Source: Thermodesulfobacteriota bacterium (lineage in GTDB: Bacteria > Desulfobacterota_D > UBA1144 > Nemesobacterales > Mycalebacteriaceae). From it: a stretch of DNA of 64,000 bases. Shown in pieces: positions 5,280 through 62,336 of the stretch. The DNA lies in contig OZ245366.1 of the NCBI GenBank assembly GCA_965226585.1, forward strand, positions 1,184,001-1,248,000, written 5' to 3'. Numbering within the stretch: the first letter of the stretch is position 1; every line of letters begins with the position of its first letter. The notes below the pieces were generated by a model. It was not told where the DNA came from, searched no databases, and saw only the letters and a program-made list of their open reading frames with translations. The position numbers and the translations under genes are program-made.

Positions 5280-5476
5280 CGTCATTCCGTTGCCCCTTTT
5301 CCCGTCATTCCTCTTTCCCCGTCCATTCCTCTTTCCCCGTCATTCCTGCGAAAGCAGGAATCCAGTATTAATTAACCAGTTGAATACTGGATTCCGTGTC
5401 AAGCACGGAATGACGGAATAGAGAAGTGTCATTCCTGCCCCTTCCGTCATTCCTGCGAAAGCAGGAATCCAGTATT
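5280..5476. repeat. CGTC-tagged palindromic repeat cluster: partial units, one 78-bp doublet (5338-5415) and a half unit (5445-5476)
   Basis: Doublet reads CGTCATTCCTGCGAAAGCAGGAATCCAGTATT-N13-AATACTGGATTCCGTGTCAAGCACGGAATGACG. The half unit overlaps the autotransporter stop codon. Confidence 0.95.
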
Positions 5477-8400
5477 AAAACCTGTAATTAACTCCGCCTC
5501 TGAACTGTTGCACAAAAGTATCAACCGAAGAACTCACTCCGCCGCCATATTCAAAACTCACATTAAACTTCTCATAAGGGCTGTATTCAAAACCCGCGCC
5601 GTAGGTGAACATCACCCTGTCCATTGTGCCGTCAACGGGAACATTATCCCTCTCAAGCCTTCCTTCAATCTCCGACTCTGGGTTAAGCACCTGTATATCC
5701 GCCCCTGTTCTTATCCACATGTTTATTGTCTCATTGAGAGGACTCCGCGCCTCTATTGACGGACTCACGTACACAAGCAACTCGCTTATCTCATCTACCC
5801 CAAAGGCATCCATCGCCGCGTCTGCCGCACCTGTTCCTGTTGTAAGCGAAGTCTCATTAAACTTATCCGCCGTTATTTGCGATGCGCCAACCGCTACGCG
5901 GGGGAAGAAAGCGAACTCTCCCATTAAGAACGGTCTTGCCGCGCCTATTTCACCGCCAAATACTGTTGCGTCCACATCCGCAGAGTAACTGTTGCCCGCC
6001 GTTCTGGTCGCTTCCCAACTCGTTGACCCATAACGCAGGTTGCCATCAAGAACAAACTCATCAACCAACGCCTCAGCGAATATACCGCCCATGAACCTTG
6101 TTGCGTCTCCGCTTGCTTTGCCCAGTCCTTTTGTGTCCGCCGCAGTCTCTGTTTCTGAACTCGCGTCTATATCCGATATCTCATATCCGCCCGCGATGGA
6201 AACAAGCACTCCGCTGAATGGCGCGGAAAAACCGCCGGTGAAGGAATAAACATCCTCGTTATATTGTATCGCCGATGTGTGCCTTGTGTATCTCCCGCCG
6301 GATGTTGCCCATACGCATCCAGTCCAGAAATCTCCGCCCACCTCATCACTCGCCGCTCCGCCGGTTCCGCATCCTCTTGCCAACTTGTCCGCAAAGTTTC
6401 TGTCTGAACGATAGGCGGACTGTATCAGCGCGTCATATACATCCAAACTTGTGTCTTTGTGCGATGTCGCTATTAAAAACAAATTGCCGTTTTCGTCTGT
6501 CTCAACACTTACCCTTTCGCCTGTCTCCGCATTCAGGCGGTCTACAAATTCCTGCCTTTCTTCGCCTTCGGGCAGGTCATCCGCTTCAAAAATTGTGTAT
6601 TCGTTTATGTGCGTTCCGGGGATATCAACCCTGACATTAAAGCCTTCAATATCTTCCGCGCTTATCGTACCTTCAAGGTTTATCAGCGGGTCGCCCGTCA
6701 TGCTTTCAGGGTCTGCCGTGATAACAAGGGTTGAATTTTCCCCAAAGGTTATTTTCTCCAGTCCCGCAAATCCGCCTGTGTCTTGAATTACGATTGTGCC
6801 ATTGTTTATGAAACGGTCATCGCCATCGCCGAAGTTTATGGTTGCGGTTGTGTCCTCAGGGGCAGGGTCTGCAGAAGAAAGGCGGAAACGGCTGTCGCCG
6901 CTTGCTGCCCCCTCCGTCACTCCTGCCACCTCCGTCATTCCCGCCCCTTCCGTCATTCCCGCCCCCTCCGTCATTCCTGCGGAAGCAGGAATCCAGTATT
7001 GATTAGCCAGTTGAATACTGGATTCCGTGTCAGGCACGGAATGACGGGAAGGCGAAGATTGCGCTCCCGATGAGAGAGGGAAACTCCCGGTTCCGCCTGA
7101 AGACGGCTCGTTTTCCGCATTCTCAAGCATGAAAGCGCCAACAAGGAATGTTCCCGTGCCTTCGGTCGCAACGGTGTCATCGCCTGCGCCCATATCAAGG
7201 TCGCCCGTAAGCGTGAATGTCCCGCCGTCTTTAACGGTAATTGAGTCATTACCGGCTCCGGTTGTTCCCCAGCCCGTGAAAGTTCCCTCGTTTATAAAAG
7301 TGTCGGCGTTGTCGGAAAGTTGTATTCTGCCCGTTATGCTGCCGGTAGGGTCGGTTGTTATCCTTGAGCCATGGGTCGGGGAATCAACACTCACGGCATA
7401 GCCAACCTCCGTGCAGACAGAACCCGAAAGTTCACCGCCGCACACAACCGCGCCTCCTCCTACCGTCAATTCCATTAATGCCGTTCCGTTTCTGAGAGAT
7501 ACCGCCGAACTTGTGCCGCCGTTAGCCCACACTTTTGCGCCGTGAATGTTTGCCGCTGTTGTCGCCTTCACTGTTGAACTTCCCGAAGCGTTAGACCAGA
7601 CCTGCCCCGTTCCGTCTCCTGATATGACCGTAATCCCTCCGCCGGCTTTCGCTGAAATTGCCGAACTTCCAGAAGCGTTAGACCAGACTTTTCCGTCATT
7701 TGAAACATTGACCGTTTCCGCCACTATCGTGTTGCTTGTCTTGCCTTCCCCAATTGTGTTGGCTGATGTTTCGCCTACCCACACTTTTGCACCGTCAATT
7801 TCAACCGTGCCGTTTGAGATAATCGCGGAGTCTGAGTTGAACGCCGACACATTTACGCCGCCCGATACGGTTATTGTTCGCCCGTTGATTGCCGCGAACC
7901 CGTTTTCCGTCTTGACACTTAACCCGTTGTCTTCTCCCGTGCCTCCGGTTACTGACAAGGCTCCACCCGCGCTTGACGCTTCAATGGCGACTGCGCCTCT
8001 TCCCGCCACCTTGATTGTTGAGTTGGCATCTCCGGTAACGATTACATCTCCGCTTATTGATGTTGCCAAAATGCCGATTCCGCCGTCACTGTCGGTTCCC
8101 CTTCCAATAATTACCCCTCTTGACATGGTGAGGGTAATGTCTCCTCTAACCGTGTTGGCTATAACTCCGGTTTTGCCGATTATGCAGGAAAGTCTGTTCG
8201 CAATTATTACATCTACCGTTCCGTCCTCTCCGGTTACCGCCGCCAGACCGTAGGAATCTCCCATGGATGAGGAGAAGATTACCGCCCCGTTTATCAGCGA
8301 GGTCGTCAGGTCGCCGCTTGAACTCGTGAGAGTGGCGGATTTAGAGTCCGAGGTTGAACTCCACCTGACATCTCCGGGAATGCTTCTGTAACTGACAATT

Positions 8401-17704: not shown

Positions 17705-18141
17705 TTGCGCCTTCCGTTTTAGTTGCGTCTTTTCCGTTATTCCCGCCCTCTCTGTTATTCCCGCCCTCTCCGTCATTCCCGCCCTCTCCGTCATTCCGTT
17801 GCCTTCTCCGTCATTCCTGCGAAAGCAGGAATCCAGTATTGGTTAGCCAGTTGAATACTGGATTCCGTGTCAAGCACGGAATGACGGAAAGGAAAAAAAG
17901 CACGGAATGACACTCTTCCCCGTCATTCCTGCGGAAGCAGGAATCCAGTATTAATTAACCAGTTGAATACTGGATTCCGTGTCAGGCACGGAATGACGGG
18001 AAGGGGAAAAAGCACGGAATGACACACTCCTCCGTCATTCCTGCGGAAGCAGGAATCCAGTATTACCCAACCAGTTGAATACTGGATTCCGTGTCAAGCA
18101 CGGAATGACGGAAAAGGGAAAAAGGCACGGAATGACGGGTC
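17705..18141. repeat. Repeat array: 18-bp tandem units, then three doublets (17809, 17921, 18033; 112-bp period) between convergent AT2 and AT3
   Basis: Three 78-bp doublets and the linker GGAAAAAAGCACGGAATGACAC read directly. Confidence 0.95.
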
Positions 18142-21100
18142 TTAAAACCTGTAATTAACCCCGCCCCTGAACTGTTGCACAAAGGTATCTACCGAAGAAC
18201 TCACTCCGCCGCCATATTCAAAACTCACATTAAACTTCTCATAAGGGCTGTATTCAAAACCCGCTCCGTAGGTGAACATCACCCTGTCCATTGTGCCGTC
18301 AACGGGAACATTATCCCTCGCAAGCCTTCCTTCAATCTCCGACTCTGGGTTAAGCACCTGTATATCCGCCCCGGTTCTTATCCACATGTTTATCGTCTCA
18401 TTGAGAGGACTCCGTGCCTCTATTGACGGACTCACGTACACAAGCAACTCGCTTATCTCATCTACCCCAAAGGCATCCATCGCCGCCGCCGCCGCATCTG
18501 TTCCTGTTGTAAGCGAAGTCTCAACAAACTTGTCCGCCGTTATTTGCGATGCTCCAACCGCTACACGGGGGAAGAAAGCAAACTCTCCCATTAAGAACGG
18601 TCTTGCCGCGCCTATCTCGCCGCCGAATACCGTTGCGTCCACATCCGCAGAGTAACTGTTGCCCGCCGTTCTGGTCGCTTCCCAACTTGTTGACCCGTAA
18701 CGCAGGTTGCCGTCAATAACAAACTCATCAACCAACGCCTCGGCAAATATGCCGCCCATAAACCTTGTTGCGTCTCCGCTTGCTTTGCCCAGTCCTTTTG
18801 TGTCCGCCGCAGTCTCTGTTTCTGAACTCGCGTCTATATCCGATATCTCATATCCGCCCGCGATGGAAACAAGCACTCCGCTGAATGGCGCGGAAAAACC
18901 GCCGGTGAAGGAATAAACATCCTCGTCATATTGTATCGCCGATGTGTGCCTTGTGTATCTTCCGCCCGATGTTGCCCATACACATCCGCCAGTCCAAAAC
19001 TCCCCTTCTATCTCATCACTCGCCGCTCCGCTGATTCCGCATCCTCTTGCCAACTTATCGGCAAAGTTTCTGTCTGAACGATAGGCGGACTGTATCAGCG
19101 CGTCATATACATCCAAACTTGTGTCTTTGTGCGATGTCGCTCTCAAAAACAGGTTGCCGTTTTCGTCTGTCTCAACACTTATCCTTTCGCCTATCTCCGC
19201 GCTCAGGCGGTCTGCAACTTCCTGCCTTTCTTCGCCGTCCGGCAGAGCTTCCGCTTCAAAAATTGTGTATTCCGTTACATGCGCGCCGGGAACTTCAACT
19301 TCAACATTGAAACCCTCAACATCTTCGGCGGTTATCGTCCCCTCAAGGTCTATCAGCGGGTTGCCCGCAACGCTTTCAGGGTCTGCCATAATAACAAGGG
19401 TTGAGTTTGCACCGAAAGATATTTTCTCAAGCCCGTTAATCGTTTCCCCGCTCCTTATTACCAAAGTTCCGTTGACTGTCAGAGTGTCTCCATCGCTATC
19501 TCCAAAGTTCAGAGAACCGCCGCCCGATTTCTCCGGCTCCGTTTCCACAAACTCAGCGGTTCCCGCAGAACCGAGACGGGAACGCCCGTCTCCGCCGGAT
19601 GACACAGAACGCCTGCCGCTACTACTGCTGGTGGTAGTAATATTCGTGCCGTCATACACCGCGCCTGCGGCTATGGTAACACTTGCGCCGCCCACAACAG
19701 CCGATGTGTCTATATCGCCATACACCTTGCCGGTGCCGCCAACCGTAACTTCTCTCTTGTCGTAGCCAAGGGTTCCTGTTCCCACCTTCGCGCCCGCAGA
19801 CATTTTTATCGCCACGCCGCCCGTTACGTTCACGCTTCCGTTCACCCAAACAAAAGCCCCGCCGTTTGCCGTGTTCGCGGAAATCCCGGTTCCCGAAATA
19901 ACCGCCCCGCCGTTTGCGTACACCGCCGAACCTTCTTCAATAATTACATTTGCATATCCGGTATCAGCCCGCGCTATTATCGCCTTCGCGCCGTTTCCAC
20001 TCGCGTTCACAACTGCCTGTCCTGAAACGGTAATGGCAACATTCCCGCTTCCGCTTGACGCGCCCCGGAACGCGCTTGACCTGTCAGGGATGACTGACAG
20101 CCGCGAGTCTTCGCTCATTGAAAAAGAGATGTCTCCGTTTTCCGTCTCCGCGACAATCGCGTCTGAAGCGGAATGCCCGCGCATAATCACCTGAGAGGTG
20201 TTGGCAAGCGCAATGTTTATGTTTCCGTCCGCGCTGTTCGCGTAGATGGCTCCGGCGGTGGTTCCGTGATCCGGCAATCCGGCTATGACCTGCGCGCCGC
20301 CTTTCAAACTGACGGTTGTAACCCCGTTAATCATTTCCGACACGATGCCGCTTGACAGGTCTCCTGCCGCCTCTATCCGGGAGTTGTCTGATGCGTTAAG
20401 GAAAAAGTTCACATCATCGCCGCCCGCGACTGCGCGAATGGCTGTGCTGTTCCCCGCGCTTGTCCGAATACGCGCGTTTGCGGACATATTGAAGATTATA
20501 GACCCTCTGTTCTGGCTTGCATCCACGCCGCCGGAGTCAGCCGCGTTTGTGAAGACCGCCGCATTGCCTCTTATGTTGAGGCGGAACAAGTCTCCGTCAT
20601 TTATTTCCGCCAGCAGAGCCGTGCCGGAGACCCCTTCCGTGTAAATTTCCGTGCCGCCTTCCAAAACCGCAACGGCGGCTACATAGCCGTATCCCCCGCC
20701 CGGCCGGTGTGTCTTTATGCTGAGGGCTGAACTGTTTTCCCCTTCGCTGAATATTTTCGCAGAGTTTCCGCTTGATCTGAAAAATACGTCAAATGATTCC
20801 TGGGAAGCGGTTGTTATCTCAACTGCGGAGGCATTCGCCCCGTTTGACCACACTCTCAAGGGTCCTCCCATAAGTCTCACCTCAATATCTCCGAAGGGCT
20901 GAGAGGCGTTCACCTCCATAGTGTTCACATTATTGCCGGTTGTCCATACATCGGTGTCTCCCCGAACGTTAAGCCGGACTGTACTCGTTTCTTCAGTTGC
21001 AATCGCGCTTGCGCCGCCGGTTGCCCAAATTGTGGAATCCTCAACCGTCATGGATACGCTTCTCGCTATGACGATATCACCCGGCACGGTGCGGTTTGCC

Positions 21101-24100
21101 GAGTGCGCGGCAACGGCTCTTACACCCTCCGCCACCCGCGCCGAGGCGTTCACGTTGTTCATATAGACATCAGTGGAGGAAATAGCCTTGCCGTCTCTTC
21201 CGTTTGCCCACGCTGTTACTCTATAGACACTAACGCGGCGGGGCAGAAAAAAGCCGGGGGAACTGCTGGTGTAATGGCTGATGGCGACAGAGTTCACCCC
21301 CTCCGCCCAAACTTCTGACGATAGGTCACGGGAGTGGATGCTGTTCCCCGTAATCGTTACGGAGTTCGCCCCGTTTGACCACATTTTTGAACCCTCGCTC
21401 ATGTCGAACCTGCCGGATATGCTTGCCGTTACGGATGAATTGCCTTCAGTCCACAATTCCGCCGACTTCGTAATCTCAAATCTTTCCGCTAAAATCGCCG
21501 CGCTTCCCTCGCCGTTTGCCCACACTTTCGTGTCCGCCCCGCGCACGGTGGCTTCGGAACTTACAACAGTAACGCTGGTGTTTCCCTCAGACCACACTTT
21601 TGAGCCGCCTCTGATTCTCACATTCCGCGCGATGGCGGTGGTGCTGAAATCGCCGTTTGACCAGACACGGGGATCTGAGGCGGCGACAAAGGTTACGGCG
21701 GAAATGGTGTTGCTGTTATCCCCCTCCGTCCACACACTCGCTTGCCCTCTTGTTACACTAATCTCACTCGCCAAAGCCGCCCCGCTTCCGTATCCGTTAG
21801 CCCACACCTTTCCTCTGGAAAGTTTCACGTTAATACCGGGCGCCGCCGCAACGGTTGTGCTGTTCGCCCCTTCAGACCAAATCCTCTGCCTCACACCCGA
21901 GGTTTGATCGTCCACAGTAAAACTTCCGTTCTCGCCAACCGCGCCCGCCCTGTCTATGCGGAGGGTTACGCTTTCACTGCCTTTTGACCACACTTTTATT
22001 CGAGACGGCGCTCTGAGCCGGAGGGCGGTATTGCTGTAAATGGTGATTGTCGCGCTGCCCGCCCCCGTGCTTCCCAACTCTTTTGCGGGCAGATACCCCG
22101 CCATTTGTCCAACTGGAAGCCAGGCGTAGTTGAACGCGAGGGCGGAGCTGTTTTCGCCTGTTGTCCATACGGCGTTTGTCTTTTCAAAGGTGATAACTGA
22201 TGAATCTCCCAGCGGGATGAACCCGTCAAAGACAGTTATCTCCTCCGGGTTTGGTCCGGGGAAACTTTCGTCTTCCTGAACCGTTGTTGAGAATAATGTC
22301 CAGTCAGATCTTCCCGTCCAGAACGAAGAGTTGTAGGAGGCAACGGTAACTGTTCCTCCTTCTATGTTGGCGGCATGAAAAAACGCTCCCAGTTGGTGTT
22401 CAAATCCGATGGTTGAGTTGTGAAGGTTGAGGGTAACGTCCTTTGCCGCCGCCTTAATTTCAAAAGGCGTGGAGAAATCCCCCTTAGCCCACACTTCCGA
22501 GTTGTTCACGGTTATATTTTCGTCAACCGAAACGGCGTTGCTTGGCGACGACCCGTTTGCCCATATTTTCACGCCGTCAATTACTGAGGGTCCGCCCCTT
22601 ATGATAACGGTTGTGCTGTTTGCCCCTTCCGTCCAGAACTCCGCCCTGTCTCCTTCGGTGGAGGAGATAAAAACAGCTCCGCCGCCGCTTGAGACATTCA
22701 CCGCCGAACTTTCCTCTCCCTCAGCCCACACCTTGCCCGCAGTGGTGTACGCAACAGGTCCGCTTCCCGTTTCCAGACGGACTGTCGCGCTTCTGTATCC
22801 TTCCGTCCATGCCTTTCTCACGTTGAAGTGGCCGCCCAAGTCCGCCGGGCTTGCTCCCTGATTTTCAAATACGATGGCTGAACTGCGGAAGCCGTTTGCC
22901 CAAACCGAGTCTATGTTCTCAAAACTCATGCGGCTTGTGATTACCGTGTTGTCAATCCTTGCCGTTGCCGTTCCGCTTCCCGCGACTACCGCCGAGAATA
23001 CTCTGGCTATATCTTTTCCCATCCAGAAAGAGGAGTTTTCCGAAGCAACCGATACTGTTCCGCCGAGTCCTTCCGTGATTCCAAAAAACGCGCCTTGAGC
23101 CGTATCAGAGCCGACAACCGAGTTGTAAAGTTTGAAGTCAACCTCTCCGCTCCGCAGTCCGGACAGTCTGAAAATTGTTCCCTGCCCCACAGCGGAAAGG
23201 TTTGACGAGTTCACGATTACGGTTGCCTTTTTTCCGCTTCCCGACACAGTTGCGTCAACCGCGACCGTCCTGAGTCCCTCAGTCCACAAGGTTGAGTTTT
23301 CTATGGTAACGGATGTTTGCGCGGAAATGGCGTTGCTGTCTGCCCCGTTTGCCCACACTTTCAAGCCGGTAACCGTTGCGATGTTTGCTTTTACGGCTGA
23401 AGAGCGGGCTCCCTCCGCCCAAACTTCTCCCGTTCCGTCTGTTGAACTGATGGCAACCGTTCCCGAACTGTTTCCCGTAACCGCCACATCTCCCGCCCCG
23501 TTTGCCCAGACCCTTGATCCGCCGAGCAAGTCCGCCGTTCCCGCCGCCATCGCGTTTGCCATTTTACCCGCGCCGGTTGCCGCCCATATATCCGAGCCCT
23601 TTATTGTCGCGCTTTCTTCCGATGAAACTGCGTTGCCGCCTGACCCCCCTTTTACCCACACTTTCAAGCCGGTAACCGTTGCGGTGTCTGCTTTTATGGC
23701 TGAAGCCCGGAAGCCCTGCGCCCAAATTCCTCCCGTTCCGTCTGCTGAACTAACGGCAACCGTTCCCGAACCGTTTCCCGTAACCGCCACATCTCCCGCC
23801 CCTTTTGCCCAGACCCTTGCTCCGCCGAGTAATTCCACCACTCCCGCCGCTACCGCTTTTGCCGTTTTACCGTTGCCGGTTTGCGCCCATAAAGTCGCGC
23901 CGTTTATTGTTACGCTTTCTTCCGATGAAACTGCGCTGCCGCCTTCTCCTCTCGTCCAAATCTCTCCCGTTCCGTCAGATGATGTGATGGTTACCGCGCC
24001 CGAATCTTCCGCCCTAACCGCAGACGCGCCCACGCCTCTAGCCCAAACTTTTCCCATGGTTGAGATGTTGACCGTCTCAGCGATTACAGTCGTGCTGTTA

Positions 24101-25005
24101 TCGCCTTGCGTCCAAACGGATGCGGCGGCAACCTTTGCCGTATCCGCAACCACCGCCGCTGAGTTGGTTCCGGTTGCCCAAACTTGTGTGTTGTTGTGGA
24201 TGACTGCCAGTCCTTCAACAACAACCGCGCTGGTGTCTGTGCCGTTAGACCGGATTTCTGACTGTGAAATTGTTACGCCGTCTGATGCTTTGACTGCCGT
24301 GCTGTTTGCGCCTTCCGTCCACACATCAAGCGATGTAATGGACGCGCTTCCGCCTCCGCCCGTAATGTTGACGGCGTAACTGTCATCGCTGAGTGAGTAG
24401 ATTTCGCCCGCTGAGGTGTTGCCTGAGATAGAGATAAGTTCTTCGGATTCAACCGCCAGAGCCGCGCCGCCTGCGGAGCCTGCTTCCAGCGCGAGTTTTG
24501 AATTGTTGCCCACCCAAAAGGTGATGGATGTGTTCACGCCTTTGAATTCAGCGGTGTTCACGCTACCGCCGCCTGAGGTAACAAGCATATTGTCTGTTAT
24601 TCTTGCGGCTATATTTCCCTGTCTGATATTTACGCTAATCGCCGCGCTTCCGCCTGAGTTTATAACGTCTGTTTTTCCGTCTCTTGAGCGGACATCCAGA
24701 TCAAGGTTTGTAATGATACTGGTGTTTGTGTTTGGGTCTCTTGCGTAGGTAATTGTGGAACTAATTCCGTCTCCTCCGATTAGCGGAACGGGGTTTGCGG
24801 CTTCAATGATGAAGGGGGTAGTGGTTATGTTGTATGTAATAACCCCGCGTGTGTGTTTTTCATCAAGAATTTCGAATTGTTCAGAGGGAGACTCCGGAAA
24901 CGGGAGGATTGTCACGGGAGAATTTGTCTGGGAATAAGATACGCCCGGCACGATGAGGGTGAATAAAAGAGCAATCAGGGAGAGGGCGAATGAGCGTTTA
25001 AGCAT
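18142..25005 (-). CDS. Giant autotransporter adhesin-like protein AT3 (2287 aa)
   Basis: Signal peptide MLKRSFALSLIALLFTLIVPGVSYS/Q, VWxxGxxSxA repeats, and a barrel nearly identical to AT1 ending GGVNYRF. Confidence 0.92.
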   Translation of the reverse strand: MLKRSFALSLIALLFTLIVPGVSYSQTNSPVTILPFPESPSEQFEILDEKHTRGVITYNITTTPFIIEAANPVPLIGGDGISSTITYARDPNTNTSIITNLDLDVRSRDGKTDVINSGGSAAISVNIRQGNIAARITDNMLVTSGGGSVNTAEFKGVNTSITFWVGNNSKLALEAGSAGGAALAVESEELISISGNTSAGEIYSLSDDSYAVNITGGGGSASITSLDVWTEGANSTAVKASDGVTISQSEIRSNGTDTSAVVVEGLAVIHNNTQVWATGTNSAAVVADTAKVAAASVWTQGDNSTTVIAETVNISTMGKVWARGVGASAVRAEDSGAVTITSSDGTGEIWTRGEGGSAVSSEESVTINGATLWAQTGNGKTAKAVAAGVVELLGGARVWAKGAGDVAVTGNGSGTVAVSSADGTGGIWAQGFRASAIKADTATVTGLKVWVKGGSGGNAVSSEESATIKGSDIWAATGAGKMANAMAAGTADLLGGSRVWANGAGDVAVTGNSSGTVAISSTDGTGEVWAEGARSSAVKANIATVTGLKVWANGADSNAISAQTSVTIENSTLWTEGLRTVAVDATVSGSGKKATVIVNSSNLSAVGQGTIFRLSGLRSGEVDFKLYNSVVGSDTAQGAFFGITEGLGGTVSVASENSSFWMGKDIARVFSAVVAGSGTATARIDNTVITSRMSFENIDSVWANGFRSSAIVFENQGASPADLGGHFNVRKAWTEGYRSATVRLETGSGPVAYTTAGKVWAEGEESSAVNVSSGGGAVFISSTEGDRAEFWTEGANSTTVIIRGGPSVIDGVKIWANGSSPSNAVSVDENITVNNSEVWAKGDFSTPFEIKAAAKDVTLNLHNSTIGFEHQLGAFFHAANIEGGTVTVASYNSSFWTGRSDWTLFSTTVQEDESFPGPNPEEITVFDGFIPLGDSSVITFEKTNAVWTTGENSSALAFNYAWLPVGQMAGYLPAKELGSTGAGSATITIYSNTALRLRAPSRIKVWSKGSESVTLRIDRAGAVGENGSFTVDDQTSGVRQRIWSEGANSTTVAAAPGINVKLSRGKVWANGYGSGAALASEISVTRGQASVWTEGDNSNTISAVTFVAASDPRVWSNGDFSTTAIARNVRIRGGSKVWSEGNTSVTVVSSEATVRGADTKVWANGEGSAAILAERFEITKSAELWTEGNSSVTASISGRFDMSEGSKMWSNGANSVTITGNSIHSRDLSSEVWAEGVNSVAISHYTSSSPGFFLPRRVSVYRVTAWANGRDGKAISSTDVYMNNVNASARVAEGVRAVAAHSANRTVPGDIVIARSVSMTVEDSTIWATGGASAIATEETSTVRLNVRGDTDVWTTGNNVNTMEVNASQPFGDIEVRLMGGPLRVWSNGANASAVEITTASQESFDVFFRSSGNSAKIFSEGENSSALSIKTHRPGGGYGYVAAVAVLEGGTEIYTEGVSGTALLAEINDGDLFRLNIRGNAAVFTNAADSGGVDASQNRGSIIFNMSANARIRTSAGNSTAIRAVAGGDDVNFFLNASDNSRIEAAGDLSSGIVSEMINGVTTVSLKGGAQVIAGLPDHGTTAGAIYANSADGNINIALANTSQVIMRGHSASDAIVAETENGDISFSMSEDSRLSVIPDRSSAFRGASSGSGNVAITVSGQAVVNASGNGAKAIIARADTGYANVIIEEGSAVYANGGAVISGTGISANTANGGAFVWVNGSVNVTGGVAIKMSAGAKVGTGTLGYDKREVTVGGTGKVYGDIDTSAVVGGASVTIAAGAVYDGTNITTTSSSSGRRSVSSGGDGRSRLGSAGTAEFVETEPEKSGGGSLNFGDSDGDTLTVNGTLVIRSGETINGLEKISFGANSTLVIMADPESVAGNPLIDLEGTITAEDVEGFNVEVEVPGAHVTEYTIFEAEALPDGEERQEVADRLSAEIGERISVETDENGNLFLRATSHKDTSLDVYDALIQSAYRSDRNFADKLARGCGISGAASDEIEGEFWTGGCVWATSGGRYTRHTSAIQYDEDVYSFTGGFSAPFSGVLVSIAGGYEISDIDASSETETAADTKGLGKASGDATRFMGGIFAEALVDEFVIDGNLRYGSTSWEATRTAGNSYSADVDATVFGGEIGAARPFLMGEFAFFPRVAVGASQITADKFVETSLTTGTDAAAAAMDAFGVDEISELLVYVSPSIEARSPLNETINMWIRTGADIQVLNPESEIEGRLARDNVPVDGTMDRVMFTYGAGFEYSPYEKFNVSFEYGGGVSSSVDTFVQQFRGGVNYRF

Positions 25006-25066: not shown

Positions 25067-25331
25067 ACGGGCGGGGGTAAAAGGGGGTTTTTGAAGCAGG
25101 AATCCAGTATTGGTTAACCAGTTGAATACTGGATTCCGTGTCAAGCACGGAATGACGGGAAGGGGAAAAGGCACGGAATGACGGGAAGGGGAAAAGGCAC
25201 GGAATGACGGGAGTGGAGAAGCGTCATTCCGTTGCCTCCTCTGTCATTCCTGCGAAAGCAGGAATCCAGTATTGGTTAGCCAGTTGAATACTGGATTCCG
25301 TGTCAAGCACGGAATGACGGAAGTGGAGAAA

Positions 25332-25716
25332 CGTCATTCCTGCGAAAGCAGGAATCCAGTATTATTTAACCCGATGGACAAAAATCCCGCAGTCTACATA
25401 ATGGCGAGCAAGCGAAACGGAACACTTTACACAGGTGTAACCAGCAACCTGCCCGCCCGCGCTTGGGAGCATAAGAACAGCGCGACAGAAGGTTTTACAG
25501 ACAAATACAGTGTCCACCTGCTTGTGTACTTTGAAGTGCACGAGGATATGAATTCAGCAATTGAACGCGAGAAGCAGATAAAGCAATGGAAACGCCAGTG
25601 GAAATTGGAACTTATAGAGAAAGACAACCCTGAATGGAAAGATTTGTATGAGGATATTGTTTGAGTAGGGGTTTCGCCAGTTGAATACTGGATTCCGTGT
25701 CAAGCACGGAATGACG
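25332..25716 (+). mobile_element. Candidate autonomous element: left palindrome + GIY-YIG gene + right palindrome (385 bp)
   Basis: The left half of the doublet (25332-25363) and the right half (25684-25716) are intact and separated by the nuclease gene instead of the 13-bp spacer. Mobility is inferred, not shown. Confidence 0.6.
25374..25664 (+). CDS. Stand-alone GIY-YIG nuclease (YhbQ/UPF0213-like, 96 aa)
   Basis: AVYIMASKRNGTLYTGVTSNLPARAWEH, GFTDKY, AIEREKQIKQWKRQWKLELIEKDNPEW; the Tyr, Tyr-x-Gly, Arg, His, Glu and Asn positions of the family are present. The ORF-track extension from 25272 is translated repeat. Confidence 0.92.
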   Translation: MDKNPAVYIMASKRNGTLYTGVTSNLPARAWEHKNSATEGFTDKYSVHLLVYFEVHEDMNSAIEREKQIKQWKRQWKLELIEKDNPEWKDLYEDIV

Positions 25717-26496
25717 GGAAGGAGAAAAGGCACGGAATGACGGGAGTGGAGAAACGTCATTCCGTTGCCTCCTCCGTCATTCCTGCGAAAGCAGGAATCC
25801 AGTATTAATTAGCCAGTTGAATACTGGATTCCGTGTCAGGCACGGAATGACGGGAAGGGGAAAAGGCACGGAATGACGGGAGTGGAGAAGCGTCATTCCG
25901 TTGCCTCCTCTGTCATTCCTGCGAAAGCAGGAATCCAGTATTAGTTAGCCAGTTGAATACTGGATTCCGTGTCAAGCACGGAATGACGGAAAGGGGAAAA
26001 GGCACGGAATGACGGGAGTGGAGAAACGTCATTCCGTTGCCTCCTCTGTCATTCCTGCGAAAGCAGGAATCCAGTATTAGTTAACCAGTTGAATACTGGA
26101 TTCCGTGTCAAGCACGGAATGACGGGATGGGGAAAAAGGCACGGAATGACGGGAGTGGAGAAACGTCATTCCGTTGCCTCCCCCCGTCATTCCTGCGAAA
26201 GCAGGAATCCAGTATTAGTTAGCCAGTTGAATACTGGATTCCGTGTCAAGCACGGAATGACGGAAAGGGGAAAAGGCACGGAATGACGGGAAGGGGAAAA
26301 GGCACGGAATGACGGGAGTGGAGAAACGTCATTCCGTTGCCTCCCCCCGTCATTCCTGCGAAAGCAGGAATCCAGTATTAATTAACCAGTTGAATACTGG
26401 ATTCCGTGTCAGGCACGGAATGACGGAAAAAAAACAATCAACGGAATGACGGAATGGTGGAAAGCACGGAATGACGGAAGCGGCAGGTATCCAGTA

Positions 26497-29400
26497 TTAA
26501 AACCTGTAATTAACCCCGCCTCTGAACTGTTGCACAAATGTATTAAAACTCGCGCTGGTTCCGCCGCCGTATTCTATGCTTATGTTCAAACTGTCGTAGG
26601 GGTTGTATTCCATTCCGGCGGAGTAGGTGAACATCACCCTGTCCATTGTGCCGTCTCTGAGGACATTCTCGGGAACATCAGGGTCGCCGTCATTTGCGCC
26701 GTCTCTTATAAGCCGCCCCTCAATCTCAGATTCAGGGTTTAGCACTTGCACATCCGCTCCGGCTCTCATCCACATGCTTAACATCTCACTCACAGGACTC
26801 CGCGCCTCTATTGACGGATTTACATACACCAACAACTCACTCGTATCTTCTACATAAAACTTGTCCATATCCGCCGCCGTTTCCTCATTCACGCTGTCCG
26901 TATCGGGGTCATCCACCGCAAGCGAATTCTCAACGAACTTGTCCGCCGTTATGTACGATGCTCCCAACTCAAGACGAGGCAGTAAGGCAAACTTGCCGGA
27001 TAAAAACGGCTTGGTAACGGCTATCGCGCCGCCGAATACTGTCGCGTCCACATCAGCCGAATAACTGTCGCCGTCCGCCGTTCTGGTCGCCTCCCAACTT
27101 GTTCCCGCATAACGCAGGTTGCCGTCAACAACAAACTCATCAATAACACCCTCGGCAAATATGCCGCCCATAAATCTTGTTGCGTCTCCACCCGCTTTGG
27201 CAAGCCCCCTTGTGTCTTCATCAAATGCCGTCTCCGCGCTTGCGTCTATTGTGGATATCTCATATCCGCCCGCTACTGAAACAAGCACTCCGCTGAACGG
27301 GGCGGATACTCCGCCGGTGAAGGAATAAACATCCTCGTCATACTGTATCGCCGATGTGTGCCTTGTGTATCTTCCGCCAGATGTTGCCCATACGCATCCA
27401 GTCCAGAAATCTCCGCCCATCTCATCACTTGCCGCGCCGCCGGTTCCGCATCCTCGCGCCAACTTGTCGGCAAAGTTTCTGTCTGAACGATAGGCGGACT
27501 GTATCAGCGCGTCATATACATCCAAACTTGTGTCTTTGTGCGATGTCGCTCTCAAAAACAGATTGCCGTCTCCATCTGTCTCAACGCTTACCATTTCACC
27601 CGCCGCCGCGCTCAGGCGGTCTGCAACCTTTTGCCTTTCTTCGCCGTCCGGCAGGGCTTCCGCTTCAAAAATTGTGTATTCCGTTACGTGCGTTCCGGGA
27701 ACATCAACTTCAACATTGAAACCTTCAATGTCTTCAGCGGTTATCGTTCCCTCAAGGTCTATCAGCGGGTCGCCCGCCACGCTTTCAGGGTCTGCCATGA
27801 TAACAAGGGTCGCGTTTTCACCGAAAGTCATTTTCTCCAAGCCGTTCATAGATGTTCCCCGGTCAACCTCCCAAGTTCCGTCAAACATGAAACTGTCTTC
27901 GCCTTCTCCAAAGTCTAAAAGAATGAACGCAGATTCCGGCTCAGTTTCCACAACCTCAACGGGTTCCGCAGAACCAAGACGGAAACGCCCGTCTCCGCCG
28001 GATGACGCAGACCTTCTTCTGCTGGCGCACAAACTTGACGTATGGCCGCCTAATTCCACACTGCTAAAGCAACCTGTGCCACTGTATGAGGCACCGGAAA
28101 GAGAGAGCGTGTCATCTCCATCTCCCATAGCAAAAGTTCCCGTAAACCTCCAACCGGCGTTTTTTATGGAAACAATGTCAGCGCCCCTGCCCAAATCCCC
28201 GCTTCCCGTGAATGCTATTATTGATGAACCACTTAGTCCGTTCACGTAAATTTGGTCAATGTGTGACGTTCCACTAATATGACCGTGTATCCCGCCCTGA
28301 CCAGTACTTGCCAACTCCATAATAATTTTTCTGCTGACTGCCGGCCGCAGACTTGGCTGCACTCTCGCTTCGGCTACCAGATTTACCGCAGTCGCGCCCG
28401 GCGCGTACACAAACCCTCCCTTTATGTGAACCAGAATGCCCCCGTCACTCGTTTGCGCTTTAATCGCGGTTGAACTGCTTTGCGATACCTTCACAAACGA
28501 CCCCCTCTCCATAATCACGTTCGCGTGTTCTCTGACGCCGCCCGCCACAAATTTGTTGGTCGCGCTTCGCGCCAATATTCCTATCGCGCCCGCGCCGGTT
28601 AAGTTCAAACCCATGGTTGCTCCAATGTTCACAACCGCGTCTCCGACACGCCCCCCATTCGCGGTAATTCCGACCGCCCTGTCGCCATTCAACTGAACTA
28701 TCTGGTTGTTGGCATCCTGATTTTGGGTTCTTCTGTGGTGAAAATCAACTCTCGCCAATGCTCCGGATTCCGTAAGCACTGAAACAAACTTGCTGTCATG
28801 TCCGTGCGCGTGAAATCTGTTGTCGAAGCCCGAAAGCCCTACGCCGCGAGTAGAAACAATATTTCCCCTCACGCTTCCGCCGTCAACTACTTGCGCATGA
28901 AAAGCCGTGCTCCTGTCGCCTGTTACAAACAGGTCTCCCCGCACATCAAACCCTATGTTTCCCTTTCTGGCACTTATAAGCACCCCGTAACTGTCTGCGC
29001 CGGCGGCGGAGACGGTGGTGTTGGAATTCTGGCTATACACAACATCCGACGCTTTGGGGTTTGGACCCAAAGTGCCCAATCTTACCGCAGTACTGCCCGT
29101 CCCGTTTGTCCACACTCGAGCCCGATGCGCGGTGTCTGTGCCGAGGGTGAATGTTAAGGGTGTTCCGGATTGCGCATGCAGTTGAAGGGCAACGGCAGTG
29201 CTGTCTCTCGCCTCCGTCCACACTTGCGCACCCCCGCTAATGGTGGCTGTTACAGTTTCCGACAGACTGTCTGCGCCCAAGGCGGTGCTTGAGTGCCTTG
29301 TCGCCCACACTTTTGCCGACCCTCCAATGTTAATGTTAATTTTTCCGAAGTCCGTAACGGCGCTGAATGCGCTTGACCTGTCAGTCTGGATTGACAGCCG

Positions 29401-32400
29401 CGCACTTCCGCTCATTGAAAGAGTAACGTTTCCGCCCCGTGTGCCCGTGGTAATCGCGTCTGCAAGGAAATGACCGCGCATAGTTACTTGAGAGGTGTCG
29501 GCAAGCGTAATGTTTATGTCTCCGTCCGCGCTGTTCGCGTAGATGCCTTTGGCGGCGCTTCCGTATTGCGGTTGTCCGGCTACCACCTGCGCGCCGCCTT
29601 TCAAACTGACGGTTATAACTCCGTTGCGGCTTTGCAGTCTGACGGTATTGGTATTCGACTGCCCTGAGGAAACATACGCCGAATCCGGATTCCCCACCGC
29701 CGCGCCTGCCGCCGCCGCCGCGCCGTTGATATAAAGCCCTATGTCTCCGTCCAGCGATAACGCTCGTATGGTGTAGCCGTGCTTACTGGAGAAAGAGACT
29801 TTCGCCTTGTCGGAAATGATTATTTTTGTCTCCCCGTTAACCATTTCCGACACAATGCCTCTTGACAGGTCTCCTCCCGCCTCTATCCGGGAGTCGCCTG
29901 ATGCGGTAAGGAGAAAACTGGTCTCAGTTCCGCCTCGCGTTCCGGTGGTTTTGGCTTCCGCCCTGACGGCGTTGCTCGCCCCGCCGCCAACTTTTATCCG
30001 CGCTCTGTCTTCCAGATTAACTCTTATGCTTCCGATGTTCATTTTTACATCAACCGCGTCTGACATTCCGGCGGCTTCAATTAGTGAGTCGTCTTTCATG
30101 CTGAGGGTGAACCCGGTTCCGTCATCCATATCCGCCCGTACCACCGCGCTTCCCGTCCCGCCCGCGTATGCCCGCGCCGTGCCATCCAAACTTACTCCAA
30201 ACGAGATGCCGCTTCTTGCCGCGCCCGTGTATGTTTCATCTATGTTGATGACGGAACTGCCCGCTCCGTTTGCGAACACCCTTGCGCTGTCAGTAATGTT
30301 CAAGTTGAAACTGGTTTGGCTGATGCGGTGAAAATGGCTAATCACTTTGCTTCCCGTGCCTACCGCATACACTTGCGCGGAGCCCTCAACGCTTATGACT
30401 GATGCCGGTCTGGCGAGCGCGAATCCGAGCGGGGCTGTTGAATTCGTTATTATCACGTTACTGTCCGCCCCGTTTGTGAAAACCCGCGCCGTGCCTTTAA
30501 CGGTTACGTCCACGGGTCTGACATCGTCTCTTGTATAATTTGAGGTTATATCCAGCGCGCCACTGCTTCCGGCGGCGGCGTAAATTTGCGCGCTTCCCGC
30601 AACAGACACATTTGCCGCTCCGTTGGTTCGTATCACAACCGCGTTTCCCGTTTGCTCCACAAAAATCTTTGCGTTCTCTTTTATGGAGAGGTTGGCGCCT
30701 TCGGTTCCGCTTCCGGCGTCGGCTTCCATAAAGAGCGCGTTCGCTCCGATTCCGACCGCGCCAATAAACGCGCTGTCTTCAAGCGTAACGGTGATTCCCT
30801 GCGCGCCCTTAGTGCCTGTCGGCATAACGCGATTGGACGATAAGTGAACACCGCTTTTCTTTCCGCCATTGGTGAATATGCTTGAAGAGTCTTTCATGGA
30901 CAGGATGGCAAAGGAAGATCCCGAATGAATTCGCACTCCCGTTCCGCCTTCCTCAATGGTTGCGGGGGTGGAGGAAGGCAGGGCGGCTGTGTTCACAACC
31001 GCCGTGCCTGTCATGTCCATACGGGCTGTTCCGGTTCCCGCGAAAGCGCGTATGGCGTTTGACCCCGCGCTCGTGTTCACGGCTGAAGAATCCACAGTTA
31101 TTGTCGTGCTACCCGAACTTGCCGCGTTGACGGCGATTGCGCCGCGCTGTTGGGCTCTTTGTATCCAGGTTCCGTTGTATATTCCCACCGTTGTAGAGCC
31201 GCCCGCCGACATCTTAATGACGTTGAATGAAGCAAGCGTTCTCACCAACGTGTTGGAGAAGAGAACTGACATGGCGCCGCTGCCGGCTGTCGCTTCCATT
31301 AATATCGGAACGCCGGCTCCGTTTGCGACTATGTTTGTATCGTAGATTTCCATTCTAACTGTGTCGTTTGTTACCTGTATCATTTCGCCCGCGAGCGTTT
31401 TCCAGATATCGGACTGGTTGGCAATCAACTGCCCCGCCACAATCGCCGTTGACCTCGTGCCGTTTGTGTGCACACGCGACCGTGTGATGGTTACCCCTTT
31501 GGTTGTGGAAATTGCGTCTGCCCCCGAACTGCCTTGTGAGTACACTTCCGAGTTGTTCACATTCACGCTTCCCCCCGCAGAAACCGCGATGCTTATGAAT
31601 CCGTTTGACCACACTGTTGAGTCCGTTATATCCACGTCTCCCGGCGTTCTGATTGTTGCCGCTTGCGTTCCGTCTGACCAAACTTTCGCGCCGGTCTTGA
31701 TATTCACATCTCCGCCGGCGGCAATCGCGTTTGATTTATCGCCGCTCGCGCCCACTGTCCCGCCGTTGACTAAAACGGTGGTCGCTGAAACGGCATTGCC
31801 TCCTGCGCTGTCAGTCAAAACTGAGGCGCCGTCATGAACTGACACGGTTGTTGCCTTAACGGTTGACGCATTGGTTCCGCCGCCCGTCCAAATCTCTCCC
31901 ATTCCGTCTGATGAAACGATGGTTACACTTGCCGAAGTTCCCCCCGTAACCGCAGACGAGTTCGCGCCGCCAGCCCAGATTCTTGCCCCGCCGGACACAT
32001 TCACCGTTGCCGCCCTTACGGTTATGGCTCCAACCCCGTTGCTCCCGACTTTCGCCTTGTGGACTTTCACCGTTGCCGCTTCCGTTATGGTTTCCGTTGC
32101 GGCTCCGTCCGTCCAAATCTCTCCCATTCCGTCAGATGAAAATATGTTTATAACTGCCGCCGTTCCCGCGTTCACCGCGTATGCTCCCGCGCCGTTTGCC
32201 CAAACCCTCGCCCCGCCGGACACATTCACGGTTGCCGTATTTATGGTTGAGGCTCCGGTGCCATTGCTCCAAACCTGCGCCCCGTTCACCACCACAGTTG
32301 CCGCTTCCGTTATCGTTGCCTTGCTGTCTCCGTGCGTCCAAATCTCTCCCATTCCGTCTGATGAAAGAATGGTTACAACTTCCGCCGTTCCCGCATCCAC

Positions 32401-35400
32401 CGCGTATGCACCCGCGCCGCCGTTAGTCCAAACTTTCGCCCCGCCGGACACATTCACGGTTGCCGCCCTTATGGCTGAAATTCCAGTTCCGTTGCTCCAA
32501 ACTTTCACCCCGCTGACGGTTGCCGTTCCCGTTGCCTTTATGGTTGTCGCATCGGCTCCGGTTCCGGTTGTCCAAACTTCTCCGTCTGCGTCAGACGAGG
32601 TTATAAGCACATCTCCCGATTCTCCCGCAGAGATTGCCGATGAGTTATCGCCTTCCGCCCAAACCTTTCCGCCGCCGGAAACATTCACCGTGTCTGCAAC
32701 TACCGCGTTGCTTGTCGCCCCGTTGCTCCACACATTCGCGCTGTTCCAGATATTAACGGTTGTCGCAGTGATGGTGTCAGTTGTGTCGCCTTCCGTCCAG
32801 ACCTGAGTGTCCGCGCCGTTGACTGTTGCCGTTGTTGCCGAAACCGCCTGACTTCCCGCGCCGCTTGCCCACACTTTCAAGCCGTCATTGATATATGCCG
32901 TTGTTCCTTTTACTGTTGAAACGCCGTCAACTGTTGTCCACATCTGTCCCGTTCCGTCTGCTGATACTATGTTGACCGTTCCCGAAACTCCCGCAGAAAC
33001 CGCAGAACTTGTCGCGCCTTCCGCCCAAACCCTTCCTTCGCCGGAAATATTCAAAGTTTCCGCAACTACCGTGTTGCTTGTGTCGCCACTGCTCCAAACC
33101 TGCGCGCTGTTCCAGATATTGACGGTTGTCGCAACTATGGTGTCGGCTGTGTCGCCTTCCGTCCAGACCAGAGTGTCCGCGCTGTTGACTGTTGCCGTTG
33201 TTGCCGAAACCGCCTGACTTCCCGCGCCGTTTGCCCACACTTTCAAGCCGTCATTGATATATGCCGTTGTTCCTTTTACTGTTGAAACGCCGTCAACTGT
33301 TGTCCACATCTGTCCCGTTCCGTCTGCTGATACTATGTTGACCGTTCCCGAAACTCCCGCAGAAACCGCAGAACTGCCCGTGCCTTCCGCCCAAACCTTT
33401 CCTTCGCCGGAAATATTCAAAGTTTCCGCAACTACCGTGTTGCTTGTGTCGCCACTGCTCCAAGCCTGCGCGCTATTCCAGATATTGACGGTTGTCGCAA
33501 CTATGGTGTCGGCTGTGTCGGCTTCCGTCCAGATTTGAGTGTCCGCGCCGTTGACTGTTGCCGTTGTTGCCGAAACCGCCTGACTTCCCATTCCATTTGC
33601 CCACACTTTCAAGCCGTCATTGATATATGCCGTTGTTCCTTTTACTGTTGAAACGCCGTCAACTGTTGTCCACATCTGTCCCGTTCCGTCTGCTGATACT
33701 ATGTTGACCGTTCCCGAAGTTCCCGCAGAAACCGCAGAACTGCCCGTGCCTTCCGCCCAAACCTTTCCTTCGCCGGAAATATTCAAAGTTTCCGTAACTA
33801 CCGCGTTGCTTGTCGCCCCGTTGCTCCACACATTCGTGCCATTAACTGTTACGGCGGTTATTGCCGTAACCGCATTGCTTGTGTCGCCGTTTGACCACAC
33901 TTGCGCGTCGTTCCAGATATTGACGGTTGTCGCAGAGATGGTGTCGGCTGTGCCGCCTTCGCTTGTCCAGACCTGAGTGCCCGCGCCGTTGACTGTTGCC
34001 GTTGTTGCCGCAACCGCCCGGCTTCCCGCGCCGTTTGCCCAAACTTTCAAGCCGTCATTGATATATGCCGTTGTTCCTTTTACTGTTGAAGAGCTGTTAC
34101 CTGTTGTCCACATCTGTCCCGTTGCGTCATCCGCCACTATGTTGACCGCTCCTGAAGTTCCCGCAGAAACCGCAGAACTTGTCGCGCCTTCCGCCCAAAC
34201 CTTTCCGCCGCCGGAAATATTCAAAGTTTCCGCAACTGCCGTGTTGCTTGTCGCCCCGTTGCTCCAAACATTCGTGCCATTGACCACAACAGTTCTTGCC
34301 GTAACTGCGTTGCTTGTTACGCCGTTTGACCATACTGTTGAGCCCGTTGTTATATCCACGTCTCCCGCCGTTCTGATTGTTGTCGCTTGCGTTCCGTCTG
34401 ACCAAACTTTCGCGCCGGTCTTGATATTCACATCTCCGCCGGCGGCAATCGCGTTTGATTGCGAGCCGCTCGCGCCCACTATCCCGCCGTTGACTAAAAC
34501 GGTTGTTGCTGAAACGGCGTTGCCTCCTGCGCTGTCAGTCAAAACTGAGGCTCCGTCATGAACTGACACGGTTATTGCCTTAACGGTTGACGCATTGGTT
34601 CCGCCGCCCGTCCAAATCTCTCCCATTCCGTCTGATGAAACGATGGTTACACTTGCCGAAGTTCCCCCCGTAACCGCAGACGAGTTCGCGCCGCCAGCCC
34701 AGATTCTTGCCCCGCCGGACACATTCACGGTTGCCGCCCTTACGGTTATGGCTCCAACCCCGTTGCTCCCGACTTGCGCCTTGTGGACTTTCACCGTTGC
34801 CGCTTCCGTTATCGTTTCCGTTGCGGCTCCGTCCGTCCAAATCTCTCCCATTCCGTCAGATGAAAATATGTTTATAACTGCCGCCGTTCCCGCGTTCACC
34901 GCGTATGCTCCCGCGCCGTTTGCCCACACTCTCGCCCCGCCGGACACATTCACGGTTGACGTATTTATGGTTGAGGCTCCGGTGCCATTGCTCCAAACCT
35001 GCGCCCCGTTCACCACCACAGTTGCCGCTTCCGTTATCGTTGCCTTGCTGTCTCCGTCCGTCCAAATCTCTCCGGTTCCGTCTGATGAAAGAATGGTTAC
35101 AACTTCCGCCGTTCCCGCATTCACCGCATATGCCCCCGCGCCGTTTGACCAAACTTTCGCCCCTTGTGACACATTCACGGTTGCCGCCCTTATGGCTGAG
35201 GCTCCAACCCCGTTGCTCCAAACCTGCGCCCCGTTCACCACCACCGTTGCCGCTTCCGTTATCGTTGCCTTGCTGTCTCCGTCCGTCCAAATCTCTCCAG
35301 TTCCGTCTGATGAAAGGATGGTTACAACTTCCGCCGTTCCCGCGTTCACCGCGTATGCCCCCGCGCCGCCGTTAGTCCAAACTTTCGCCCCGCCGGACAC

Positions 35401-37761: not shown

Positions 37762-37821
37762 TAAGGGTTCCCTAGAGGCGTTTAGGCATTCATACATCTA
37801 CCGTGAGGGGTTAATCTTGGA

Positions 37822-45409: not shown

Positions 45410-46240
45410 GGGCAGAATGACACTTCTCTATTCCGTCATTCCGTGCTTGACACGGAATCCAGTATTCAACCGGTTAAGTAATACTGGATTCCTGCTTTCG
45501 CAGGAATGACGGAAGGGCAGAATGACACTTCTCTATTCCGTCATTCCGTGCTTGACACGGAATCCAGTATTCAACTGGTTAAGTAATACTGGATTCCTGC
45601 TTTCGCAGGAATGACGGAAGGGCAGGAATGACACTTCTCTATTCCGTCATTCCGTGCTTGACACGGAATCCAGTATTCAACTGGTTAAGAAATACTGGAT
45701 TCCTGCTTTCGCAGGAATGACGGGAGGGGGCAGAATGACTCTTCTCTATTCCGTCATTCCGTGCTTGACACGGAATCCAGTATTCAACTGGTTAAGTAAT
45801 ACTGGATTCCTGCTTTCGCAGGAATGACGGAAGGGGGCAACGGAATGACGGAGAGAGGCAACAGAATGACACTTCTCTATTCCGTCATTCCGTGCTTGAC
45901 ACGGAATCCAGTATTCAACTGGTTAATTAATACTGGATTCCTGCTTTCGCAGGAATGACGGGAGGGGGCAGAATGACACTTCTCTATTCCGTCATTCCGT
46001 GCTTGACACGGAATCCAGTATTCAACCGGTTAAGTAATACTGGATTCCTGCTTTCGCAGGAATGACGGGAGGGGGCAACGGAATGACGGAGAGAGGCAAC
46101 AGAATGACACTTCTCTATTCCGTCATTCCGTGCTTGACACGGAATCCAGTATTCAACTGGTTAAGTAATACTGGATTCCTGCTTTCGCAGGAATGACGGG
46201 AGGGGGCAGAATGACGGAAGGGCAGAATGACGGGGATGGG
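45410..46240. repeat. Tandem array of seven inverted-orientation doublets (45434, 45539, 45645, 45752, 45883, 45990, 46121)
   Basis: Period 105-131 bp with linker GGAAGGGCAGAATGACACTTCTCTATTC. Confidence 0.96.
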
Positions 46241-62065: not shown

Positions 62066-62336
62066 CCATCATTCCGTTGCCTCACCCCGTCATTCCGTTG
62101 CCCTCCCCGTCATTCCGTTGCCTCACCCCGTCATTCCGTTGCCCTCCCCGTCATTCCGTTGCCCTCCCCGTCATTCCTGCGAAAGCAGGAATCCAGTATT
62201 ACATAACCGGTTGAATACTGGATTCCGTGTCAAGCACGGAATGACGGAAGTGGAGAAGCGTCATTCCTGCGGAAGCAGGAATCCAGTATTAATTAACCGG
62301 TTGAATACTGGATTCCGTGTCAAGCACGGAATGACG
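62066..62336. repeat. Repeat cluster: 20-bp tandem units and two doublets (62169, 62259) between convergent genes
   Basis: About five CGTCATTCCGTTGCCCTCCC-like units, then two 78-bp doublets. The second abuts the reductase stop codon at 62337. Confidence 0.95.

Follow-up and report, generated by a model that had tools for sequence, protein, structure and literature searches.

Does the small nuclease gene that sits inside one repeat doublet of this chromosome drive the spread of the empty doublets around it? The window analysed here, a stretch of 64,000 nt from a 1.48-Mb genome, holds 50 hairpins of two types, 46 of which form 23 inverted empty doublets. All 23 have a 21-nt gap between CCAG-ended hairpins (a 4-nt tail, a 13-nt spacer and a 4-nt tail), and an empty doublet is 78 bp long. 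One hairpin pair lies 328 nt apart and encloses a GIY-YIG gene; we call it the filled unit. A sequence-only reading of the window had described this layout, which our hairpin scan and Pfam search confirm for the 23 empty doublets and for the pair around a 96-aa GIY-YIG open reading frame. It had proposed that the filled unit is an autonomous transposon, that the empty doublets are its internally deleted derivatives and that the nuclease plays the part of a RAYT transposase.

The filled unit begins with a left hairpin (25332..25359, forward strand), a CGTC-1 REP and NTS variant made up of a CGTC tag, an 8-bp stem, a 4-nt loop, a post-stem C and a CCAG tail; it differs from the NTS consensus by two substitutions that together form one compensatory stem pair. 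A tail and leader follow (25360..25373, forward), the first part being spacer positions 1–8 as kept in empty doublets, and then the ssn gene for the 96-aa single-domain GIY-YIG nuclease (25374..25664, forward; ATG at 25374 to TGA). The last part of the trailer (25665..25687, forward) is spacer positions 7–13 plus the tail of empty doublets, and the unit closes with an inverted, CGTC-2-like right hairpin (25688..25716, reverse) with its CGTC tag outermost, an 8-bp stem and a 5-nt loop. The reading frame is open for 34 codons upstream of the ssn ATG (25272-25664), through a right and a left hairpin, and no obvious Shine-Dalgarno sequence lies ahead of the ATG; a promoter scan gave 2 sites, equal to the number in shuffles.

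The unit is part of a host array between two autotransporter-like genes (25093..26460, forward) that contains one truncated doublet, six empty doublets (25242, 25775, 25911, 26047, 26185 and 26348, forward), the filled unit and half-repeat satellites. Elsewhere in the window are a three-doublet empty array (17809..18110, forward), a seven-doublet one (45434..46198, reverse), two empty doublets (62169..62336, forward) and single empty doublets at 5338, 9065, 37950 and 48485. The whole genome has 279 hairpins, 122 short (empty) doublets in 54 clusters and two filled pairs, and the tag is CGTC or TGTC in 278 of the 279 hairpins; the hairpin pattern had 0 matches in each of five mononucleotide shuffles.

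Judged by its sequence, the 96-aa protein is a new member of the Ssn family of single-strand nucleases described in 2025, single-domain GIY-YIG enzymes with CGTC-tagged hairpin flanks (Chenal et al. 2025, PMC11893778). Its sole Pfam match is PF01541 (GIY-YIG; E=7.8e-16, residues 6-78), searches of NCBIfam and of PDB sequences gave no match, and a single-sequence AlphaFold model had a mean pLDDT of 48. At 96 aa in a single domain it lies within the size range of the family (<150 aa), and it aligns without gaps with an NTS-embedded N. gonorrhoeae homologue at 52 of 92 identical positions (57%, E=5e-36), which satisfies a homology threshold of E<1e-10 over 75% of the length; that homologue sits among 16 NTS-like repeats in 3.3 kb. 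Residues Y8, Y19 and E66 align with SsnA Y6, Y17 and E64 at a two-residue offset, and mutation of these SsnA residues abolishes cutting (PMC11893778). They are conserved in 97%, 98% and 100% of 59 homologues (those of 63 homologue loci that gave an intact 80–125-aa protein), and R29 and H33 are also conserved in the family alignment. The sequence-only reading had placed the catalytic glutamate in the segment AIEREK; the segment is right, but the alignment with SsnA E64 makes the residue E66, in REK, and not the E of AIE. Its sequence, the numbering of its residues and the surrounding repeats point to orthology with N. meningitidis SsnA.

Both hairpins, on the 5' and the 3' side of the gene, retain the tag G and the post-stem C, the bases shown to matter in the NTS/SRM flanks of Ssn genes (PMC11893778). 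The degenerate SRM pattern is missed by two mismatches in the left hairpin and one in the right, and exact matches number 0 in the window and 7 in the genome. Hence, the published SRM string, which is a search tool and not a family definition, misses the hairpin variant present here. According to the same report, SsnA cuts only single-stranded DNA, a few nucleotides 5' of the hairpin, and leaves double-stranded DNA uncut; site-specific cleavage restricted to single strands was shown for four Ssn homologues, of which family 71% lie near such motifs and 42% are flanked on both sides, and N. meningitidis SsnA restricts transforming DNA (PMC11893778). From the 75-nt substrate and its 20-nt product we worked out the published cut position as 4 nt before the tag. 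By analogy, the predicted activity of the 96-aa protein is cleavage of single strands just outside each CGTC-tagged hairpin, at a distance of a few bases, and the published SsnA activity speaks against the cutting of a hairpin or cruciform that had been proposed. Homologues of ComEC and DprA are found in the genome, which makes incoming single-stranded DNA a plausible substrate.

The pairing of nuclease and repeat extends across the family. Around 63 homologue loci (E<1e-10, from two sets of 47 and 16, with the window's own locus and three weak matches left out), 25 have an inward-facing hairpin pair within 300 bp, 14 another arrangement and 24 no hairpin within that distance; of 937 control positions taken from these loci, only 1 has an inward-facing pair. 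Protein and hairpin distances are correlated (Mantel rho 0.52, n=24 including the window locus, p=4e-4; rho 0.55 after pruning to n=20), although the signal may in part reflect host base composition and kinship. The enrichment of palindromes at the flanks and their co-variation with the protein, both expected from the earlier proposal, are thus observed, the second with host composition as a possible confounder. Together with the published cleavage beside such hairpins (PMC11893778), they support the view that the nuclease belongs with the repeat.

Repeat number was also compared with gene presence. Among 41 genomes of the order, in a comparison in which kin are not independent and the repeat pattern is narrow, the gene (E<1e-10) was detected in 10 of 15 with at least 5 pattern matches and in 7 of 26 with fewer. 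Of the 15 repeat-bearing genomes, 5 had no detected ssn, including a single-contig, 99% complete genome (G006) and two genomes of the same genus; repeats therefore persist without the detected gene. Within the genus, ssn is present in one of five relatives, and the expansion is specific to the lineage studied here, given that no relative has more than 36 pattern matches, compared with 279. The protein groups with proteins of other phyla and not with those of its own order, in a tree of few columns and weak support. A phage search gave 12 distant records, each with <40% identity.

In a same-genus genome (G001), an Ssn gene of 68% identity is present twice (L003:2282-2750), at a distance of 1.3 kb. 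Between the two copies lie four 110-bp units in tandem, which each consist of a hairpin and the first codons of the gene. This further rearrangement has its joint upstream of the CGTC tag, at a distance of a few bases. The protein and flanks of this locus closely resemble those of a Ca. Poriferihabitaceae locus (L056), the two being sister rows in the tree, and the left hairpin of L056 is identical to that of the window. The resemblance between the two loci suggests transfer between phyla.

The relation between filled and empty units can be read from the junctions of the gene. Against the best spacer variants the left junction matches at 10 of 13 positions, as had been stated, and the right at 11 of 13. 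A profile built from 105 spacers shows that the left junction fits spacer positions 1–8 only (chance 5e-4; positions 9–13, chance 0.07 and a negative score), and that the right junction fits positions 7–13 only (chance 6e-5; positions 1–6, chance 0.14 and a negative score). The count that had been given is right, but the spacer is not duplicated and each junction matches its own half only. We accordingly rejected the idea that the gene is flanked by a target-site duplication. The overlap between the two matching halves is CC. Contigs of empty copies give the joint 25369/25677 with 2 shared letters, and the corresponding CC dinucleotides in the filled unit lie at 25370..25371 (forward) and, within the trailer, at 25677-25678 (forward). 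Removing the 307 bp between the two CCs leaves exactly 78 bp, and the product differs by 1 mismatch from 13 of the 105 empty doublets compared and by no more than 4 from 85 of them. The matching halves, the CC overlap and this arithmetic indicate that a single block with 2-nt microhomology separates the filled from the empty form.

It is likely that the 78-bp empty doublets arose from a filled unit through a 307-bp deletion between these two CC dinucleotides, and the junction profile and the arithmetic of removal support the proposed origin of empty doublets as internally deleted derivatives. We infer the direction from filled to empty. In 16 of 25 homologue loci with an enclosed gene, no more than 20 nt separate the upstream hairpin from the start of the gene, which argues that the filled layout is old and favours deletion. 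About half of the spacers start with G, which the CC deletion alone cannot explain; these possibly mark a second deletion end point. The gene may instead have been captured by a pre-existing doublet, given that inward-facing pairs with the same tails enclose 97–246 bp of unrelated filler in a same-genus genome (G002) and carry no Ssn remnant.

The fillers of G002 (L080-L086) are non-coding and some recur at several loci; no Ssn gene was detected in that genome. A scan for Ssn remnants between paired hairpins at 28 loci of G002, G004 and G005 gave no significant profile match, with two weak scores of 6.0 and 3.6 bits at L085. In the genome studied here, tblastn and blastn give two gene copies and neither a degenerate third copy nor a half-deleted intermediate, and four stray 14–17-mers are scattered chance matches. 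Two unrelated loci, L042 (Cloacimonadota) and L041 (Alphaproteobacteria), likewise contain both a filled and an empty form whose arms or tails match, and the same is less clear at L038, L039 and L045. We also rejected homing into empty doublets, because neither predicted target is lost in the filled unit: a homing GIY-YIG insertion destroys its own target, whereas here both hairpins and their outer flanks are intact and the published cut lies outside the tag.

The second filled unit lies 124 kb away (G000:1333264-1333648), in another array of the same repeat. The two units differ at 2 of 385 positions (99.5% identical), by a synonymous change in codon 75 and a change in the right hairpin loop, and their identity spans the left CGTC tag to about 25 nt past the right hairpin. 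On the left, identity breaks where the half-repeat satellites provide microhomology. As both copies are inside arrays and the left break falls on a half-repeat, recombination between arrays suffices to explain the second copy. Three sequencing runs from one sample, represented by their contigs, include a 368-nt contig that carries the ssn gene with both junctions unchanged, and none of the run contigs spans the arrays. Gene depth was 12.4, 11.5 and 28.8 in the three runs against about 10, 15 and 20 for a single-copy region, a comparison that cannot give copy number, and hence the second copy rests on the assembly.

These copies bear directly on whether Ssn itself mobilises CGTC doublets as a RAYT counterpart, by cutting outside both tags, freeing a single strand and helping it to join elsewhere. 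We regard this as unlikely, and it is equally unlikely that the filled unit is autonomous with the 122 empty ones as its MITE-like derivatives. The predicted cut sites do flank the whole unit at its outer ends, the two near-identical filled copies look fresh with an identity that stops exactly at the left CGTC, and the 122 doublets are dispersed over 54 clusters. Mobility would also fit the patchy presence of the gene in the genus and, as far as the weakly resolved tree goes, closest proteins that come from unrelated phyla while the relatives in the order fall elsewhere. Profile searches of the genome with rve (PF00665) and DDE_Tnp_1 (PF01609) gave no match; two tyrosine recombinases are present. 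For CGTC REPs, Di Nocera et al. 2013 (PMC3733652) reported that a dedicated transposase is lacking. Against this, neither a target duplication (0–2 of 122 doublets with direct flank repeats of 2–8 nt) nor a fixed target dinucleotide was found at the doublets, only pyrimidine-rich satellite flanks, and a MITE of a DDE insertion sequence is likewise disfavoured by the missing duplication and, as judged on the two DDE profiles above, by the missing transposase. Independent insertion sites are also fewer than 54, since 13 of the clusters are one linker position in paralogous genes and 21 more adjoin the same gene family. GIY-YIG enzymes are hydrolytic nucleases and have no known strand-transfer step. 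With no target duplication and both filled copies in arrays of the same repeat, the autonomous transposon of the earlier proposal finds no support. The peer-review file of PMC11893778 leaves unsettled what kind of ends SsnA produces, which keeps a mobilising role alive as a minority reading, and a literature search that covered few subscription journals returned no paper showing Ssn-driven transposition.

It had also been noted that no RAYT was recognised, which is false when taken genome-wide. A RAYT-like Y1 gene lies at G000:1393314-1394138 (L001:1420-2244), encoding a 274-aa protein with a C-terminal helix-turn-helix that scores 76.3 bits against NCBIfam REP_Tyr_transpos, just under the cut-off of 80. 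Such a transposase, or a lost one, could move the doublets with the nuclease gene as mere cargo between hairpins, and the same-genus genomes with inward pairs around varied filler and no detected Ssn would fit. We nevertheless consider this highly improbable, as the hairpin nearest to the Y1 gene is 21.9 kb away with no half-sites within 5 kb, and the gene is instead preceded by a motif of its own, 16 nt long, which occurs 5 times genome-wide when up to 2 mismatches are allowed. Unlike cargo, the nuclease gene recurs with the hairpins across phyla and co-diverges with them. The 2013 survey did not find CGTC repeats beside tyrosine transposase genes (PMC3733652).

Where the doublets lie brings in the host. 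The window holds members of an expanded family of giant proteins (18142-25005 and 26497-37797, reverse; 29 ORFs genome-wide), which reach 3766 aa, carry an outer-membrane beta-barrel at the C terminus (weak PF13505 matches) and are mosaic among paralogues. In or within 1 kb of these genes lie 78 of the 122 doublets, and 34 of 54 clusters are in or within 1 kb of outer-membrane beta-barrel genes, compared with 32 of 466 intergenic gaps. The 78-bp doublet sits in frame (26 codons) at a single linker position, approximately 480–540 aa from the C terminus, in 13 of the 28 autotransporter-like ORFs that we examined. The window's own example is at 6969..7046 (forward), in the ORF 5475-8759 on the reverse strand, and the 12 other carriers are at G000:25603, 443275, 446595, 688627, 775839, 779202, 1020198, 1252727, 1256572, 1259677, 1351572 and 1371319. 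Paralogues without the doublet show the empty site; one gene has the right hairpin only and another a remnant.

Carriers are scattered over the tree of the C-terminal 430 aa, with 7 changes (a count that includes a 14th gene with half an insert) against 9.3 in shuffles, at least 5 of them forced. Among 78 carrier pairs, which are not independent and for which non-carrier pairs give little power as a reference, switches between high and low identity number 12 at the doublet and 12 at 150 nt after it, compared with 0–1 at ten other boundaries. This shows conversion tracts at the doublet. Viable swaps would be expected at a domain boundary anyway, so causation by Ssn is not implied.

The clustering at beta-barrel genes, as in Neisseria, together with the function shown in N. 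meningitidis (PMC11893778), also agrees with a domesticated host tool that restricts incoming DNA only, in arrays that grow by slippage and unequal crossing-over alone. As a complete account we consider this rather unlikely, given that it leaves the precise cassette deletion, the second copy with an identical protein and the patchy spread of the gene across phyla unexplained. It is compatible with our preferred explanation and not exclusive of it.

That explanation, which we hold to be fairly probable, is that the locus is an Ssn cassette (hairpin, ssn gene, inverted hairpin) from which the empty doublets derive by the 307-bp deletion, and that both forms multiplied via host recombination and repair and not by enzyme-catalysed transposition. 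The enzyme would nick transient single strands, exposed during replication or transformation, just outside each tag, and host microhomology-based and homologous repair would convert the nicks into deletions, tandem arrays and copying between arrays. We infer that such nicks drive array growth and copying between arrays; gene-less copies probably spread by ordinary recombination. As in Neisseria, the enzyme may in addition hold back the uptake of foreign alleles at loci for surface proteins. A bolder version, in which Ssn enzymes are the missing mobilisers of CGTC doublets, with an autonomous 385-bp unit, two fresh copies, 122 derivatives and doublets in 13 linkers, is in our view doubtful. If true, it would mean that a GIY-YIG enzyme confers mobility through its action on single strands, with neither HUH nor DDE chemistry, and would imply module swapping of surface proteins driven by Ssn nicks at the linker doublets.

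The locus is a tidy test case for what makes and spreads CGTC, dRS3 and NTS repeats, a question that both key papers leave standing. A single defined deletion separates its filled from its empty units, which form a clean substrate set, the natural stem variants outside the published pattern may offer a new specificity for single-strand DNA tools, and the repeats coincide with mosaic junctions in a family of surface proteins.

Three known systems frame the locus. The hairpins conform to the CGTC-1 and CGTC-2 REPs and their HH heterodimers (Di Nocera et al. 2013, PMC3733652), which include Neisseria dRS3 and Rickettsia RPE-6: a CGTC or TGTC tag, a stem of 8 bp (8–9 bp in the definition) starting with AT, a loop of 4 or 5 nt, a CCA tail, tags outermost in the dimers, clusters and intragenic copies. 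In contrast to that survey, which found no associated enzyme, the dimer here encloses a nuclease gene. The REPIN/RAYT system (GTAG; Bertels and Rainey) shares an inverted doublet as the repeated unit, an enzyme gene flanked by the same palindromes and predicted single-strand cleavage outside the palindrome. However, RAYT is an HUH tyrosine transposase with strand transfer, while the enclosed enzyme here is a GIY-YIG nuclease for which none is known, the only Y1 gene noted lies 21.9 kb from a hairpin, and the tag is CGTC or TGTC and not GTAG.

The closest counterpart is Ssn with its NTS/SRM repeats (SsnA, cd10448, PMC11893778), which shares the single-domain GIY-YIG protein of about 95 aa with its catalytic Tyr, Tyr and Glu, CGTC-tagged hairpins with a post-stem C on both sides of the gene, and hundreds of repeat copies clustered at membrane-protein genes. 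What had been put forward as a new nuclease-driven system is therefore the Ssn/NTS system of 2025, and its headline claim is not new, the pairing of nuclease and repeat being already in print. The idea of a RAYT-like nuclease is likewise a published hypothesis, as the discussion by Chenal et al. likens NTS-ssnA-NTS to IS200/IS605 and RAYT, as something IS-like and maybe domesticated as RAYT is (PMC11893778). The locus departs from that system in that its hairpins have variant stems that the SRM pattern narrowly misses, a pair of unlike hairpins makes one fixed doublet (a word absent from the main text of PMC11893778), the empty doublet corresponds base for base to a cassette with a deletion, and one chromosome holds two near-identical copies of the gene.
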